Below are positions 22,981 through 54,682 of a DNA stretch of 64,000 nt, piece by piece. A program made the translations under genes and the position numbers. The DNA comes from an uncultured Hormoscilla sp. GTDB taxonomy: Bacteria; Cyanobacteriota; Cyanobacteriia; Cyanobacteriales; Desertifilaceae. Location: contig OZ001293.3 in assembly GCA_963921275.4 (NCBI GenBank), forward strand, positions 5,504,001 to 5,568,000. The letters are read 5' to 3'. Under the pieces are notes generated by a model. That model made no database searches and had not been told where the DNA came from. It saw nothing but the letters and a program-made list of their open reading frames with translations. The stretch's first letter is position 1. Every line of letters starts with the position of its first letter.

Positions 22981-23085
22981 ACGGAATAGTCGTGCTCAGG
23001 CACGGAATAGTCGTGCTCAGGCACGGAATAGTCGTGCTCAGGCACGGAATAGTCGTGCTCAGGCACGGAATAGTCGTGCTCAGGC
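22981..23085. repeat. Five exact copies of a 21-bp tandem repeat
   Basis: ACGGAATAGTCGTGCTCAGGC x5. Confidence 0.95.
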
Positions 23086-23299
23086 GTCGTGTAGGGCCGG
23101 TAGATATAAAAGACCGCTTTTCAGCAAGTGATTCATTTTGTATACGAATCGTAGACGAAGAAAGCCAGCGTCGGAGGAAACCTGCTGGGGTATGAGGTTG
23201 CGAAATATGGGTTAAATTGAGAGACACCCAACTTTGACAGTATAGTGGCAAAAAAAATTATGATATGATAATTTCCGGAGTGATGGACCGAGATGTATG

Positions 23300-24020
23300 G
23301 CATGACAAGTATAAAGAGCGACTATCTGAGATAGTGCGTAGCCATAGATCAGCGCCACAGGAGGCAGTGATAGCGAAACTGAACCCTATAATTAGAGGAT
23401 GGTGTAACTATTACAGAACGGTGGTGAGTAAGGAAATCTTCACTGACATGGACGAATACTTATGGAAGATACTATGGCATCGGGCGACTAGAAGGCATCC
23501 GAATAAAACGGGCAAATGGATTGCTAGAAAATATTGGGCCATGACCGGAGAACGCCGGTGGAGGTTCTCTAGCAAGTCGAAAGAAGGCAATGAGATAGAG
23601 CTAAACCGACACTGTGAAACTAAGATAATCAGACACGTTAAGGTGAAGGGGACAGCTAGCCCGTTCAATCGAGAGATAGTATACTGGAGTCAGAGATTGG
23701 GTAAAAGCCCGGATGTGAGTAGAAGAATCTCAAAACTAATCAAAAAGCAAAAAGGGAAGTGCTTGCATTGCGGGTTAAAATTTAAGCATGGTGACAGATG
23801 GGAGGTTGACCATATAAAACCAGTTTCAAAAGGAGGTAAAGACTGGTACGAAAACCTACAACTGTTACACGATTATTGCCATGACTACAAATCTGCCAGA
23901 GATGGTAGTAAAAGCCGTATCCATGACAAGGATGGCGAAACTGAGGAGCCGGATGAGGTGAAAGTCTCACGTCCGGTTCTGAAGACGAGTCGTCGGGGTG
24001 ACCCGATGGCTTAGTTTAAT
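23300..24020 (+). mobile_element. 3' remnant of a group II intron (maturase X + HNH domains, DV, DVI)
   Basis: LNPIIRGWCNYY, CLHCG..WEVDHI..NLQLLH..CH. DV GAGCCGGATGAGGTGAAAGTCTCACGTCCGGTTC and end TTTAAT. The RT domain and 5' RNA are missing. Confidence 0.9.
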
Positions 24021-24798
24021 TGTTACCAATGTTGCCAGTAACCAACACTTGAGTTATAATAGACAAAGGTGCGACTCGTTCCGGCGTAAGTCGGAAATAA
24101 GCAATTCTCTCATTATGAGGAACCAAAAAATGAAGCATAATACCAATGCCAACACCATGGTAGTAGTGGATGCCTCCCTAGAAAACTACCAGCAGCTTAT
24201 AGACGGTATCCGGCCTGGGGCCAAATCTTTCCTCTTAGACCCTCAGTCCGATGGCATCGAACAGATCGGCGAACTTCTCCGACAGCATCAAGAAACAGAG
24301 GTTCTGCACCTACTTTCCCACGGCAGCCCTGGCTGTCTGTATCTGGGGAACTCCCAACTGAGTTTAGATACTCTAGGAGATTACGCCTCTACCCTGCAGA
24401 AGTGGAAGGTAAAACAACTCCTACTCTACGGCTGTAACGTCGCCGCCGGAGATGCAGGAGAGGAGTTGATGACTAAGCTACAGGCCCTAACCGGGGCATC
24501 CCTCGCCGCCTCTACTACCCGGACAGGGACAGCAGCCCGGGGCGGAAATTGGAAGTTAGAGTGGCGAACTCCGGGGATGAAAACTCCCTTAGCATTGTCC
24601 GCAGAAGCTCAGATGGCCTATGGGGGCATATTGATCTCCCAGCAGGAGTATCAGGCCTTAAGGGCTCTATACCAAGGCACCAATGGGGCTTCTTGGAGGA
24701 ACAATACAGGCTGGGTTAGCTGGAATTTCAGCAGCTCAACTCCCCCCGATGCTTCTGTTGTTAATGGTTGGCGTGGAGTGACGGTAACTAACGACAGG

Positions 24799-25782
24799 GT
24801 GACGGGACTCCAGCTGTTCTCCAACCAACTGACTGGCAGCATCCCGACGGAGTTAGGGAATCTTTCCAATTTGGAGGATCTCCGGCTGAACTTCAACCAA
24901 CTGACTGGCAGCATCCCGACAGAGTTAGGGAATCTTTCCAATTTGATTCGTCTCCAGCTGAACGAAAACCAACTGACTGGCAGCATCCCGACGGAGTTAG
25001 GGAATCTTTCCAATTTGAATCGTCTCTTGCTGTACTCCAACCAACTGACTGGCAGCATCCCGACAGAGTTAGGGAATCTTTCCAATTTGAATCGTCTCCG
25101 GCTGGACTCCAATCAACTGACTGGCAGCATCCCGACAGAGTTAGGGAATCTTTCCAATTTGGTATCTCTCGAGCTGGACTCCAACCAACTGACTGGCAGC
25201 ATCCCGACAGAGTTAGGGAATCTTTCCAATTTGGTATCTCTCGAGCTGGACTTCAACCAACTGACTGGCAGCATCCCGACGGAGTTAGGGAATCTTTCCA
25301 ATTTGGTATCTCTCGAGCTGGACTTCAACCAACTGACTGGCAGCATCCCGACGGAGTTAGGGAATCTTTCCATTTTGACATCTCTCTGGCTGAGCTCCAA
25401 CCAACTGACTGGCAGCATCCCGACGGAGTTAGGGAATCTTTCCAATTTGAGATTTCTCTGGCTGCACTCCAACCAACTGACTGGCAGCATCCCGACGGAG
25501 TTAGGGAATCTTTCCAATTTGAGATTTCTCTGGCTGCACTCCAACCAACTGACTGGCAGCATCCCGACGGAGTTAGGGAATCTTTCCAATTTGACATCTC
25601 TCTTGCTGTACTCCAACCAACTGACTGGCAGCATCCCGACAGAGTTAGGGAATCTTTCCAATTTGATTCGTCTCCGGCTGCACTCCAACCAACTGACTGG
25701 CAGCATCCCGACGGAGTTAGGGAATCTTTCCAATTTGACATCTCTCTTGCTGTACTCCAACCAACTGACTGGCAGCATCCCC
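24799..25782 (+). repeat. 72-bp LRR tandem array (13 full periods, 14 LRR strands)
   Basis: Near-invariant AACCAACTGACTGGCAGCATCCCGACRGAGTTAGGGAATCTTTCCAATTTG followed by variable xxLxLxx codons. Confidence 0.97.
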
Positions 25783-26084
25783 CAAGAGGTCTTAGATTTG
25801 AGGGCTAGCAAGCAATTGGAAAACCCCCCTTATGTAAAAACCCAGATTCCCGACGTCTCGTTCTTGCTAGGTAATAACCTCAACATAGACATTAGCGACA
25901 ACTTCGGCGACATCAATAACAACATCAACAACTACACAGCTACCGGTTTACCAGGGGGCGTAACGATCAACAGTCGGGGAGTTATCAGCGGTACCCCTAC
26001 TACCGCAGACACCTTTACCGTGACGGTAACCGCCATCGACCAAGCGGGATCTGAAGTGACAGATATCTTTGACATTATTATAGA

Positions 26085-29000
26085 GAACTCCCCTCCTACC
26101 GACCTAGTCCTTAGCAACAGCAGCATTGATTCTAACTCCCCTGATAATGCAGTCGTAGGGACTTTCTCAACTACCGATCCTGACATTGGAATTGGAGATA
26201 CCTTTACCTACCAGTTAGTCACAGGCGACGGTGCCGATGATAACGACGCCTTCACCATAGAAGGGAACTCACGGGAACAGTTACTCAGAGGCCTTGACTA
26301 TTAGCGTCAACGATGTTCCCGAACCTTCGACCTCCATAGTCCTTAGCAACAGCAGCATTGATTCTAACTCCGCATCGGGTGCAGTCGTAGGGACTTTCTC
26401 AACTACCGATCCTGACATTGGAGATACCTTTACCTACCAGTTAGTCACAGGCGAGGGTGCCGATGATAACGCCGCCTTCACCATAGAAGGGAACTCACTG
26501 CAAATTAACAGTTCCCCTGACTTTGAGACCCAGTCCAGTTACAGCATCCGCGTCCAGACTACTGACTCGACCGGGAACAGTTACTCAGAGGCCTTGACTA
26601 TTAGCGTCAACGATGTTCCCTCACCTCCGACCTCCATAGTCCTTAGCAGCAGCAGCATTGATGAAAACTCCTCTGATAATGCAGTCGTAGGGACTTTCTC
26701 AACTACCGATCCTGACGCTGACGATACCTTTACCTATCAGTTAGTCACAGGCGAGGGTGCCGATGATAACGCCGCCTTCACCATAGAAGAGAACTCACTG
26801 CAAATTAACAGTTCCCCTGACTTTGGGACCCAGTCCAGTTACAGCATCCGCGTCCAGACTACTGATGCTGGTGGCTTAGTTACTCAGAAGCCTTGACTAT
26901 TAGCGTCAACGATGTTCCCTCACCTCCGACCTCCATAGTCCTTAGCAGCAGCAGCATTGATGAAAACTCCACATCGGGTGCAGTCGTAGGGACTTTCTCA
27001 ACTACCGATCCTGACTCTTCCGATCCCTTTACTTACCAGTTAGTCTCAGGCGAGGCTGCCGATAATAACGGAGACTTCACCATAGTAGGGAACTCACTGC
27101 AAATTAACAGTTCCCCTGACTTTGAGACCCAGTCCAGTTACAGCATCCGCGTCCAGACTACTGACTCGACCGGGAACAGTTACTCAGAGGCCTTGACTAT
27201 TAGCGTCAACGATATTCCCGAACCTCCGACCTCCATAGTCCTTAGCAGCAGCAGCATTGATAAAAACTCCCCTGATAATGCAGTCGTAGGGACTTTCTCA
27301 ACTACCGATCCTGACGCTGACGATACCTTTACCTACCAGTTAGTCACAGGCGAGGGTGCCGATGATAACGCCGCCTTCACCATAGAAGGGAACTCACTGC
27401 AAATTAACAGTTCCCCTGACTTTGAGACCCAGTCCAGTTACAGCATCCGCGTCCAGACTACTGATGCTGGTGGGCTTAGTTACTCAGAAGCCTTGACTAT
27501 TAGCGTCAACAATGTCAACGAACCTCCGACCTCCATAGTCCTTAGCAGCAGCAGCATTGATTCTAACTCCCCTGATAATGCAGTCGTAGGGACTTTCTCA
27601 ACTACCGATCCTGACTCTTCCGATCCCTTTACCTACCAGTTAGTCACAGGCGACGGTGCCGATGATAACGCCGCCTTCACCATAGAAGGGAACTCACTGC
27701 AAATTAACAGTTCCCCTGACTTTGAGACCCAGTCCAGTTACAGCATCCGCGTCCAGACTACTGACTCGACCGGGAACAGTTACTCAGAGGCCTTGACTAT
27801 TAGCGTCAACGATATTCCCGAACCTTCGACCTCCATAGTCCTTAGCAGCAGCAGCATTGATAAAAACTCCCCTGATAATGCAGTCGTAGGGACTTTCTCA
27901 ACTATCGATCCTGACTCTTCCGATACCTTTACCTACCAGTTAGTCATAGGCGACGGTGCCGATGATAACGCCGCCTTCACCATAGAAGGGAACTCACTGC
28001 AAATTAACAGTTCCCCTGACTTTGAGACCCAGTCCAGTTACAGCATCCGCGTCCAGACTACTGACTCTGCTAGTAATAGTTTTGAGGAGGTCTTGACTAT
28101 TAATGTTATTGATGAAGCAGAGAATTCTTCTCCTACCTCCATAGTCCTTAGCAACAATAGCATCAACGAAAACTCTCCATTGGGTGCAGTCGTAGGGACT
28201 TTGTCTACTAGCGATCCCGACGAGGGAGATAGCTTTACCTACATGCTTGTCTCCGGCAACAATGCCTTTACTATAGTAGGGGACCAACTGCTAACTAACA
28301 GTTCTTTGGACTTTGAGACTCAGTCCAGTTACAGCCTCCGCGTCCAGACTACTGACTCTGCTAGTAATAGTTTTGAGGAGGTCTTGACTATTAATGTTAT
28401 TGATGAAGCAGAGAATTATTCTCCTACTGATATAATTCTTAGCAGCAGCATCAATATCAACGAAAACTCCCCAGCCAATACTGTCGTGGGGACTTTCGGA
28501 ACTACTGACCCCGATAATGGAGATACCTTTACCTACCAGTTAATCTCCGGCTTTGGTGCCGATGATAACGCTGCCTTCACCATAGTAGGGAACCAACTGC
28601 GAATTAACAGTTCCCCTGACTTTGAGACTCAGTCGAGTTACAGCCTCCGCGTCCAGACTACTGACTCGACTGGGAACAGTTACTCGGAGGTCTTGATTAT
28701 TAACGTCAACGATGTCGGCGAGTCTCCTACCGACCTAGTCCTTAGTAGCAGCAGCATCAATGAAGATTCCCTATTGGGTGCAGTTGTAGGGACTTTCGGA
28801 ACTACTGACCCCGATAATGGAGATACCTTTACTTACCAGTTAATCTCGGGCTTTGGTGATGATGATAACGCTGCTTTCATCATAGTGGGGGACCAACTGC
28901 GAATTAACAGTTCTCCGGATTTTGAGACTCAGGAGATTTACAGGATATTCGTTCGGACTACCGACTCGACTGGGAACAGTTACTCGGAGGCTTTGATTAT

Positions 29001-29330
29001 TAATGTGAACAATGTTGCTGAGTCTCCTACTGATATAGTTCTTAGTAATGGCAGCATTAATTCTAATTCCCGTGTGGGTGCGATCGTGGGGACTTTCGGA
29101 ACTAGCGATCCGGACGGGGGAAATACTTTTACCTACGGGTTAATCTCGGGTTTTGGTGACGATGATAACGCTGCTTTCACTATAGTAGGGGACCAACTGC
29201 TAATTAATAGTTCTCCGGCTTTGGAGATGAGGTCGAGTTACAGTATCCGCGTTCAGACTATTGACGTTACTGGGGCCAGTTACTCGGAGGCTTTGATTAT
29301 TAATGTGAACAATGTTGCCGAGTCTCCTAC
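26085..29330 (+). repeat. About 300-bp cadherin-domain tandem repeats
   Basis: Recurrent GACTTTGAGACCCAGTCCAGTTACAGCATCCGCGTCCAGACTACTGA at 300-bp spacing. Confidence 0.93.
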
Positions 29331-29643
29331 TGACCTTAACTTCAGCAATACTCGTCAACCCCTAACTTTCAACCCCCAACCCCTAACTTTATCACTCTTT
29401 GAGAAGGAGGAGGAGGACACTCTGATCGGCCGGGAGGGAAGAGATCGCGTCTACGGAAACCATGGAAGCGATCGTCTCTACGAAGGATCAGAGGCCAATA
29501 TTTTTGTTCTGAAGTCGGACATGATGGGTACTATCATGGACTTTGAAGATTATACGCACGGGGCTGGACGCGATCGGGCTGGACGCGATTTTTCCGGAAC
29601 GGTAGATTTGGCGATCGTCTCTCAGGGCCTAGATGTTAAACTC

Positions 29644-29964
29644 GGAGTAAGTTTTTTTGCTCACCCCTGTTCTGTAGTAGTTAGCCCATTCCCGGATTAC
29701 TGGGTTTAACCTGCTTATTAGTGCCGCCTGTGGGGCTGCTTTGTGGTTGGTTACTATCCTTGCTAACTCTTTGTTGTGCCTATCTATGGATTTCTTACTG
29801 GGTTTGATGAGAGTTTTGTATCCTAGAAGTTTTCCATGTGCATTTTTGCCCGTATGGTATTTACCTACCTCATATTGCCTGACGTTGAATCCGAGAAAAT
29901 CAAATCCCGGGTTATCGCCGTTCAGCGTATGGGTTATTTTCGTTTTTTCGGGCTTGATATCCAT
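29644..29964 (-). mobile_element. Internal fragment of a group II intron RT/maturase
   Basis: IKPEKTKITH..GFDFLGFNVRQY..KTLIKPSK..LNPVIREWANYY. Fused by deletion to both neighbours. Confidence 0.88.
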
Positions 29965-32181: not shown

Positions 32182-33680
32182 TTATGGGGCTGACTGTGCG
32201 GGTAACCAGACTGTAAAGGTGCTCCCTTCACCTAACTTGGATAGCACCGTGACGCGACCACCCATTCCTTCCACTAGGGTTTTGACGATCGACAAACCCA
32301 AACCGGTCCCGCCAGTTGCCCGGGCCCTGGTTTCATCTACCCGATAAAATCTCTCAAAGATGCGGGTTTGGTCTGGCAGGGGTATACCACATCCAGTGTC
32401 GCAGACGGCAATTGATGCCTGGGAACCTGGCGATCTAACTTAACCGTCACCGGTTTGTCCGGATCGGAATATTTTACCGCATTGTCAATCAGATTCAGCA
32501 GCACCTGTTTGAGACGATGGCAATCTGCTACTACCTCGTGAGCTCCTTTGTCTGCGGACAGGATAATTTGACGATTACTATATTGTCGTGCCATCCCCAC
32601 TACTTCTGACAATAAATCATTCAGCATGACTACCTCTAGCTGAAAGTGGATGTGACCGCTATCTGCCCTGACTAAGTCGAGTAAATCCTGCAATAATTGG
32701 ATGGTCCGATCGGCCTCTCCCGCCGCCGTTGCCAAGGCTTCTCGCTGAGGTTCTGTTAAGTTAGCACCCCGTCTGAGGGTACTTTGAACATATCCTGCCA
32801 CAATAGTCAAGGGCGTGCGCAACTCGTGGGAGACATTGCTGACAAATTGTCGCTGTTGTTCCCAAGATTCAGACAGGCGAGATAACATGATGTCCAGGGT
32901 ACTGGCTAATTCTCTCACCTCGCTGGGAGCCCTGTCTAGCTGTACCCGTGCCTTACCTAAATCAGCAGCGGAAATGGCCCCTGCATACTGAGATATCTGT
33001 CGCACCGGTTCTAGCGATCGCTTGACGTACAGGGCAATGGCCACAGTTATGAGGGCGATCCCCAATATTGTAGCAATCAACAAACTATCCACCATTGAAT
33101 TTAGCATCAGGCGATCTGAGGTAATATCCTGAGCGACATATAATTGACCTAGCTTTCTACCCTGTACCACCAATGTACCGCTACAAATTGCCATATATTG
33201 GTCATTGATGGCATATACTCGAGGGGCCATCTGTTGATTATCAATAGATATTAAAGCCGTATATTCCTGACGGTCAACTGCCAATATCGCTGATTTCGTG
33301 AGAATGTTGCCATCCGCAGTTTTTACCCACAGAAATATATCCTTTGTGTTACTCTCATCAATTGCATGTTGTAATCCTATCTCTAGCGGTAACTGTTGGC
33401 TATATGTTTCCACATCCCCGGGAAAGCGATCGGCAACATATTGGATATTCTGCTTGTGAGTGTAAATTAGCTGCTGATGCATTTTCATGCTAGTATAAAG
33501 GGAAAGGCTGCCCAGTCCCACCGCCGAAACCGCAGCAATACCTACTGTCAGGCGAAACTGTAGCGAATTTGGGTCGAGCGGCCCTGCCAACTTCTGGCGT
33601 ACAATTAGGGTGGAGCGGCCCTGGCTGCGCCCTACCCAGAGTTGAGAGATTTTTGGGTGCCAAATACTGAGAAATTTCAT
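32182..33680 (-). pseudogene. HAMP sensor histidine kinase, frameshifted in the ATPase domain
   Basis: SHELRTPL and NLIDNAVKYS. After a shift at about 32425 it reads VCDTGCGIP..IFERFYRVD..GGTGLGLSIV..GEGSTF. Confidence 0.88.
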
Positions 33681-54325: not shown

Positions 54326-54682
54326 TCCCAAACCTCAAAATTGACGTTTAAAACATGACTGCTGAGGTCCCAAACCTCAAAATTGACGTTTAAAACATGA
54401 CTGCTGAGGTCCCAAACCTCAAAATTGACGTTTAAAACATGACTGCTGAGGTCCCAAACATCAAAATTAACGTTTAAAACATGACTGCTGAGGTCCCAAA
54501 CCTCAAAATTGACGTTTAAAACATGACTGCTGAGGTCCCAAACCTCAAAATTAACGTTTAAAACATGACTGCTGAGGTCCCAAACCTCAAAATTGACGTT
54601 TAAAACATGGCTGCTGAGGTCCCAAACTTCAAAATTGACGTTTAAAACATGGCTGCTGAGGTCCCAAACCTCAAAATTGACG
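54326..54682. repeat. 42-bp (2x21) tandem array, 8.5 copies
   Basis: TCCCAAACCTCAAAATTGACGTTTAAAACATGACTGCTGAGG at 54326, 54368 ... 54662. No spacers. Confidence 0.95.

Follow-up and report, generated by a model that had tools for sequence, protein, structure and literature searches.

A 64,000-nucleotide stretch of the genome of an uncultured Hormoscilla sp. (the window) carries a gene with an array of leucine-rich repeat (LRR) units that are almost uniform in their DNA except at five codons, and this locus raises the questions of what generates the variation and whether the gene can still produce a receptor. A first-pass annotation had read the array as a variable binding surface on a cadherin stalk, with an architecture like that of the lamprey variable lymphocyte receptors (VLRs). 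Our analysis indicates that the locus is a broken member of a dispersed DUF4347-LRR-Ig-cadherin family, in which ordinary recombination and selection at the five codons probably vary a predicted binding surface. The likely mechanism is recombination between units combined with diversifying selection, not a dedicated mutator. The parts of the locus, in window coordinates, are as follows.

23265–24020, plus strand: what remains of the 3′ part of a group II intron (maturase and HNH portion, domains V–VI; Pfam GIIM and HNH, Rfam RF00029 at 23944–24020)
24032–24060, plus strand: sigma-70-like promoter match, 11/12, a consensus match only
24115–26304, plus strand: first reading frame, 729 aa, with DUF4347, N-cap, LRR array, C-cap, He_PIG, and the start of the first cadherin-like repeat, ending in a premature stop
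24157–24633, plus strand: DUF4347 domain (Pfam PF14252, E 3e-52)
24796–25803, plus strand: LRR array of 14 units of 72 nt, with 11 distinct variable segments
25828–26079, plus strand: He_PIG Ig-like domain (Pfam PF05345)
26257–26304, plus strand: junction where 74 nt have been deleted from the first cadherin-like repeat, giving a frameshift and the stop at 26304; the junction occurs once in the chromosome
26273–29321, plus strand: stalk of approximately 10 cadherin-like repeats of 300 nt (TRF; Pfam PF00028), with which the array is out of frame
26865–26896, plus strand: 1-nt deletion near 26872, the second frameshift; the short form occurs once in the chromosome and the long form 22 times
29400–29634, plus strand: degenerate RTX-like C-terminal region that ends abruptly at 29634, the tail of the paralogues being absent
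29642–29960, minus strand: antisense fragment of a group II intron reverse transcriptase (RT) gene, in place of the 3′ end of the gene

The gene at this locus is broken three times, by two frameshifts and by the truncation of its C-terminus, and the C-terminal tail lost at 29634 is present in seven close paralogues. Because the gene is broken, a working receptor on a cadherin stalk, as proposed earlier, is not supported at this locus; that the stalk is out of frame with the array had escaped the first-pass annotation. The layout of an RTX or type I-secreted adhesin, with stalk, RTX nonapeptides, and export tail in one frame, is also absent from this copy. The longest product expected from it is one of 729 aa that lacks stalk and export tail, and its only role may be the passive donation of units. 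No NACHT or NB-ARC domain was found by Pfam in this gene or in two paralogues.

The 3′ intron remnant adjoins the upstream region of the gene, and homology to the paralogues begins at 24018. Each 100-nt bin of the fragment at the other end has 53–55 matches in the genome, which fall at RT loci. In two congeners (G002 and G004), the flanking genes, encoding a CCA-adding enzyme and a response regulator, are adjacent with no LRR unit between them; the syntenic site is rearranged in G001 and falls at a contig end in G003. The absence of the block from G002 and G004 therefore indicates that this copy is lineage-specific at this site. The gene sits between two oppositely oriented group II intron pieces (23265–24020 and 29642–29960), and it is the whole intron-flanked block that is missing from these two genomes. 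Elsewhere in the window, a perfect 21-nt repeat in five copies precedes the intron remnant (22981–23085), a 42-nt repeat is present in 8.5 copies at 97% (54326–54682), and a histidine kinase on the minus strand (32337–33680), in which the ATPase domain match covers only positions 3–33 of 111, is probably truncated.

The plant-specific LRR class has the 24-residue consensus LxxLxLxxNxL(S/T)GxIPxxLGxLxx, and the 14 in-frame units of the array conform to it (TRF: period 72, 13.5 copies, 91% matches). Hypervariability is confined to codons 3, 4, 6, 8, and 9 of each unit, the x positions of LxxLxLxxN, and the remaining scaffold DNA is nearly invariant: in the 13 internal units it differs by ACA for ACG five times, AAT for AAC once, and AAT to ATT (N to I) once. 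On re-reading the sequence, these exceptions and the 13 sets of variable residues matched the first-pass annotation exactly. The third-base fixation that it also described holds in the array, where codon 4 ends in T, codon 6 in G, and codon 8 in C in 13/13 units and codon 9 in C in 12/13, but not family-wide, where the third bases are constant in only 133, 133, and 155 of 171 units. The third bases appear fixed in the array because the codon sets are joined by single steps, with 0–1 synonymous changes each. In an AlphaFold model built from the single sequence, pLDDT exceeds 90 across most of the array, and the predicted strands span codons 4–9 of every unit, with codon 3 just ahead, placing the variable codons on the β-strand (concave) side of the modelled solenoid. 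The concave β-strand face of LRRs is their ligand-binding side, and the five codons form the predicted binding face. The best solved relatives are plant receptor ectodomains, namely FLS2 by sequence (E 2e-163) and RGFR1 by fold (Foldseek E 3e-21). Of 7988 long proteins scored, 7928 matched this repeat class, the ESM Atlas yielded no hit of 0.9 or above, and a scan of genome contigs with the LRR protein gave no confirmed match. NCBIfam LRR effector families were rejected as an identity for the protein, as their matches lay far below the cut-off and reflected the repeats only.

The genome-wide BLASTN search of the scaffold suggested in the first-pass annotation revealed copies at 30 clusters and exchange that extends between loci. 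A 23-nt scaffold core has 251 chromosome matches, with 33 listed clusters, and a strict scaffold filter retained 171 units in the 30 clusters. These 171 units carry 127 distinct 21-nt variable segments, 10 of which are common to different clusters, and each variable site is occupied by 16–25 different codons. A “tight” set of 149 units in 22 clusters was chosen by eye from the 171; the eight clusters outside it comprise six with more divergent frameworks and two single units. With a looser protein pattern, 325 LRR units were found, and internal conservation was high, 156 of them lying within 3 nt of one framework. A second LRR subfamily of 54 units has a different framework and the same five variable sites, and where the two subfamilies coexist in one protein (P0069 and P0031), each retains its own framework. 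The family loci are dispersed over the chromosome, not gathered in one tandem cluster. Among the 23 loci checked, three have a single frame from DUF4347 to the C-terminal tail and look intact, and given this number, much of the family may be decaying. The intact paralogue P0069 contains FG-GAP and RTX repeats, and has the layout of an RTX adhesin at the level of sequence. The segment NRLRLDS is common to this locus and one 744 kb away. Segments are shared most often between loci with close flanks, and part of the sharing is therefore plain gene duplication.

Two further patterns were observed among the paralogues. In six of them (genome C1 near 2176086, 2456078, 4221634, 4605542, 4784930, and 6423491), DUF4347 is interrupted at an identical position by the 5′ end of one antisense group II intron, the first 18 nt of which occur in 159 chromosome copies, compared with 93 RT matches. 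At genome C1 2454168 and 3981190, another gene family contains a single in-frame LRR unit, ESLRLDG, of which an exact copy is found at 6388832. We did not score such single units in the other family (clusters 8 and 12) as captured cassettes, as they may be deletion remnants of chimeric genes.

Scaffold matches were present in 4/4 congeners (8–145 each) and in none of the DNA of one other genome tested. The congeners, whose housekeeping DNA differs by 17–22% at fourfold sites, vary at the same five positions; their frameworks are looser, the largest tight cluster comprising 48/375 units in G004. No variable segment was in common with the congeners among 85, 58, and 266 in the fetched loci, which represent part of their matches. 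Across 120 homologues with 3728 units, the same five positions are again the most variable, and scaffold identity in these 120 top homologues has a median of 76%, reaching at least 90% in two. One protein from Okeania sp. SIO3B3 (P0073), with a DUF4347-LRR-He_PIG-cadherin layout, has 21 units with 94% scaffold identity, and judging from this sequence the pattern is not confined to the genus Hormoscilla. MurJ encoded in the window shares 91–96% identity with four Hormoscilla records, and its identity to the remaining 21 of 25 loci does not exceed 75%. The literature describes this genus as living in symbiosis with sponges and as having LRR proteins (PMC6520454). One of the four Hormoscilla records is labelled as a sediment bin, so a sponge host is only putative for this genome.

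In pairwise comparisons of units, pN was 0.52 at the variable codons, compared with a pS of 0.035 and a pN of 0.012 in the scaffold. When 110 distinct units were joined in a minimum spanning tree, the steps at variable codons comprised 118 non-synonymous and 8 synonymous single changes and 55 multi-base changes. Counting steps in this way gives an omega of at least 4.1 at the variable codons versus 0.33 in the scaffold, values that are rough counts on related, recombining units of one genome rather than estimates from a codon model. The synonymous rates are alike, at 2.8 for the variable codons and 2.5 for the scaffold. Stop codons are absent from 171/171 units (neutral p ~0.001), and neither Pro nor Cys occurs at the variable codons of the tight set. 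The first-pass proposal of diversifying selection on the concave-face codons is thus borne out, amino-acid change being at least four times synonymous change with no stops.

Divergence at fourfold sites between this locus and 13 others is 12.4% in the downstream flank and 5.2% in the scaffold, and when the Thr18 codon is left out, the scaffold value is 0.000 in 12/13 comparisons. The contrast between approximately 12% in the flank and approximately 0% in the scaffold indicates that the units evolve in concert, and argues against plain duplication, which predicts equal divergence in both. Among the clusters tabulated, the synonymous ACA codon at Thr18 is private to this array, where 5/12 units have it after four different variable segments; its spread over four segments points to units having been exchanged within the array. 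The association between two codons weakens as they lie further apart, from z 9.4 and 5.9 for adjacent codons to z 0.1 for codons 3 and 9, and this trend (rho −0.67) was reached in 1/120 clonal simulations. Low linkage of distant codons alone does not separate the models, 40/120 clonal simulations being as low, and structural epistasis or multi-base mutation could account for the linkage of adjacent codons. The fourfold contrast, the private ACA, and the linkage decay together indicate that units are exchanged both inside loci and from one locus to another, in keeping with the exchange among units proposed at first.

Individual units support this picture to differing degrees. The segment TS-L-YS, noted earlier as a mosaic, can be assembled exactly from units 9 and 4 with one crossover, and the closest single unit differs from it by 3 nt. 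For IR-R-HS, an exact join was also found, between units 3 and 10 with the break inside codon 6 (CAG + TGG to CGG), a crossover that would make an Arg codon from Gln and Trp codons; two parents suffice here rather than the three first suggested, and just two point changes from unit 5 explain the segment as well. Family-wide, 30/72 isolated segments (0.42) are exact two-parent mosaics. Clonal simulations in three settings gave means of 0.24, 0.33, and 0.17 and maxima of 0.35, 0.56, and 0.28; the best-matched setting is that with mean 0.24 and maximum 0.35, and the setting with the lowest mutation rates (mean 0.33, maximum 0.56) has a maximum that exceeds the observed fraction. The mosaic excess over clonal expectation is therefore only moderate. 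Strict four-gamete quartets number only six, and recombination within the variable stretch is likely, but not proven.

A diversity-generating retroelement (DGR) or other targeted mutator that rewrites the five codons would account for third bases that look fixed in the array, for the 55 multi-base steps, and for the many RT genes of the genome, and the first-pass annotation had remarked on a resemblance to A-to-N mutagenesis of AAT, AAG, and AAC codons. This explanation is largely refuted, and we regard it as barely credible. Adenine bias is lacking: only 8–25% of units have A as the first base of any given variable codon, A is in the majority at none of the five, and 71/126 single steps involve A, compared with 72 that involve T. 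The scaffold codons CAA and TTA never take the silent A-to-G change (CAA to CAG 0/171, TTA to TTG 0/145), and a mutator acting on the variable codons is at odds with their having the same synonymous rate as the scaffold. Apart from two ordinary coding units, no A-rich template with four or fewer mismatches was found, and a non-coding, A-bearing copy near an RT gene, which the first-pass annotation had proposed to look for, did not emerge. The 93 RT matches are mostly of group II intron type; 46 of them were inspected by motif and are group II-like save one retron-like and one unclassified RT, for which the best models are retron and group II, below cut-off. A six-frame, genome-wide search found no DGR-type RT motif, and within 10 kb of the two odd RTs there was no credible A-biased repeat pair. 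Two A-biased pairs were seen (an 80-nt match at 85% and an 882-nt match at 99%), neither of them near an LRR array by sequence. One odd RT (L039:6212–7057, minus strand; genome C1 4242211–4243056) is truncated, with a YMDD motif and a best match, far below cut-off, to a group II RT model, and its neighbours look like phage tail-fibre or injection-system genes; the other (L040:5186–5905, minus strand; genome C1 1227185–1227904) is a retron-like fragment beside a glycosyltransferase-like frame. Misassembly of repeats, as a source of the array or its mosaics, is very improbable. Contigs of four public runs (X1–X4) break at repeats, none spanning the array, and disagree with the window at several positions in DUF4347, and the single-base frameshifts could be long-read errors. 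Against this, 11/14 variable segments are distinct and in frame, a contig of X2 agrees without mismatch over 24890–24993, an interval that takes in a unit junction and the private ACA, and the congeners that vary at the same positions were assembled separately.

Two further explanations accept the array as real and differ from ours in what drives it. Recent whole-gene duplication with tandem slippage, in a genome rich in mobile elements and with relaxed constraint on exposed residues, would involve no adaptive diversification and little exchange between loci. The brokenness of most loci, the abundance of group II-type RT matches, the frequent adjacent identical units and block repeats, the tracking of close flanks by segment sharing, and the variability of the same five positions in the 120 homologues all fit such a history, which we consider unlikely. 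Relaxed constraint cannot yield non-synonymous change at four times synonymous change, duplication alone predicts equal fourfold divergence of flank and scaffold, which is not what is observed, and stops, Pro, and Cys are absent at tight-set variable codons. Somewhat less likely again is a programmed system in which broken copies act as silent donors to a few intact, expressed genes, as in antigenic variation or the lamprey VLRs. Arrays in broken genes do mostly retain frame and scaffold, intact loci are few, and exact units such as NRLRLDS recur at distant loci; yet some arrays are frameshifted (spacings of 68, 71, and 73 nt), the lesions resemble random decay by deletions and introns, and no single expression locus, dedicated recombinase, or cassette ends were seen. 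A looser form of this idea, that broken loci are a reservoir of LRR units which recombination feeds, within one symbiont population, into the few intact secreted genes, providing a combinatorial, VLR-like repertoire that tracks the sponge host or phages, is a speculative reading that we hold to be doubtful; the 127 variable segments in one genome and the possibility of residue changes by crossover inside a codon would suit it.

Under recombination with selection at five codons, the process can be pictured as follows. Point mutations would arise in any of the approximately 150–170 units, and the near-identical scaffold would allow unequal crossing-over and gene conversion, by which units would be copied, lost, or spliced, at times with the break within the 21-nt variable stretch. 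Selection would retain new concave-face residues and purge scaffold changes. Judged from their sequence, intact members probably leave the cell by type I secretion and would act as binders that are secreted or sit on the surface; their putative ligands would most likely be host (sponge) molecules. Intron-mediated rearrangement may move these genes. The family is a clean case of concerted evolution and diversifying selection among dispersed bacterial LRR genes, encountered here in a copy that, being broken, contributes little to what the family as a whole shows. Eukaryote-like repeat proteins abound in sponge symbionts, and diversifying selection on a binding face points to a variable partner and offers a ready test set. 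In a reported sponge assay of five proteins, single ANK, TPR, or NHL proteins let a cyanobacterium survive phagocytosis and a cadherin protein did not; the accessible text of that report names no LRR protein among the five (PMC13747020). Protein engineers, too, may find interest in a natural library that keeps one scaffold and varies five positions.

The repeat class and fold of the array are those of plant LRR ectodomains (FLS2, GSO1, RGFR1, and MIK2). Bacterial plant-type LRR proteins, which are very common and include the eukaryote-like proteins of sponge symbionts, share the repeat class, but such uniform scaffolds are rare among them. The lamprey VLR is an LRR solenoid with a hypervariable concave face and interchangeable units, built in somatic cells by adding cassettes to an incomplete germline gene. 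The “VLR-like” label of the first-pass annotation holds for the hypervariable concave face only; no incomplete expression locus of the lamprey kind was seen here. No paper on this DUF4347-LRR family was found in a literature search outside most subscription journals and supplements. A Terpios symbiont preprint, in its accessible part, only mentions LRRs as eukaryote-like proteins (10.1101/2021.02.04.429686), and the LRR expansions reported for chlamydiae are attributed to birth-and-death evolution instead (PMC4209131).

Closer parallels come from systems in which LRR or other repeat units are recombined. Flavobacterium psychrophilum is reported to have one tandem cluster of up to 19 LRR genes, free of mobile elements, whose products have ~22-residue repeats and use type IX secretion, and an adhesion or phage-receptor role was proposed (PMC10392669). 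Its surface LRRs resemble the present ones in the hypervariability of one face, the many broken fragments, and recombination (PMC10392669), whereas here the loci are scattered among group II introns, with 24-residue units and with DUF4347, Ig, cadherin, and RTX parts; a single tandem LRR cluster with a type IX signal was not found in this genome, the loci being dispersed and the paralogues having RTX-type ends. The ROCO genes of Ectocarpus likewise have 72-nt, 24-residue LRR units shuffled among loci, with positively selected concave sites and high birth and death, but each unit is described as an exon of an intracellular eukaryotic GTPase and introns mediate the shuffling (PMC3341825). In the HNWD genes of Podospora anserina (het-d/het-e), WD40 units are reported to be exchanged within and between approximately 10 genes with a homogenised scaffold, four interaction-surface codons are under positive selection, and intact repeats persist at pseudogene loci of these fragile genes; repeat-number polymorphism and function have been demonstrated (PMC1805685, PMC4986451). 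The accessible text on fungal NLRs, in which other repeats of high internal conservation form a like case, reports that no LRR was found (PMC4986451). The present system is neither a DGR nor an NLR, and differs from HNWD in its bacterial plant-type LRRs, its secreted-looking proteins, and the lack of a NOD domain. It shares with HNWD the exchange of units, a homogenised scaffold, a few selected interface codons, and intact repeats in broken loci, and by this comparison its process appears to match that of the Podospora HNWD repeats closely, which would extend the concerted-plus-diversifying regime of these fungal genes to dispersed bacterial LRR genes.
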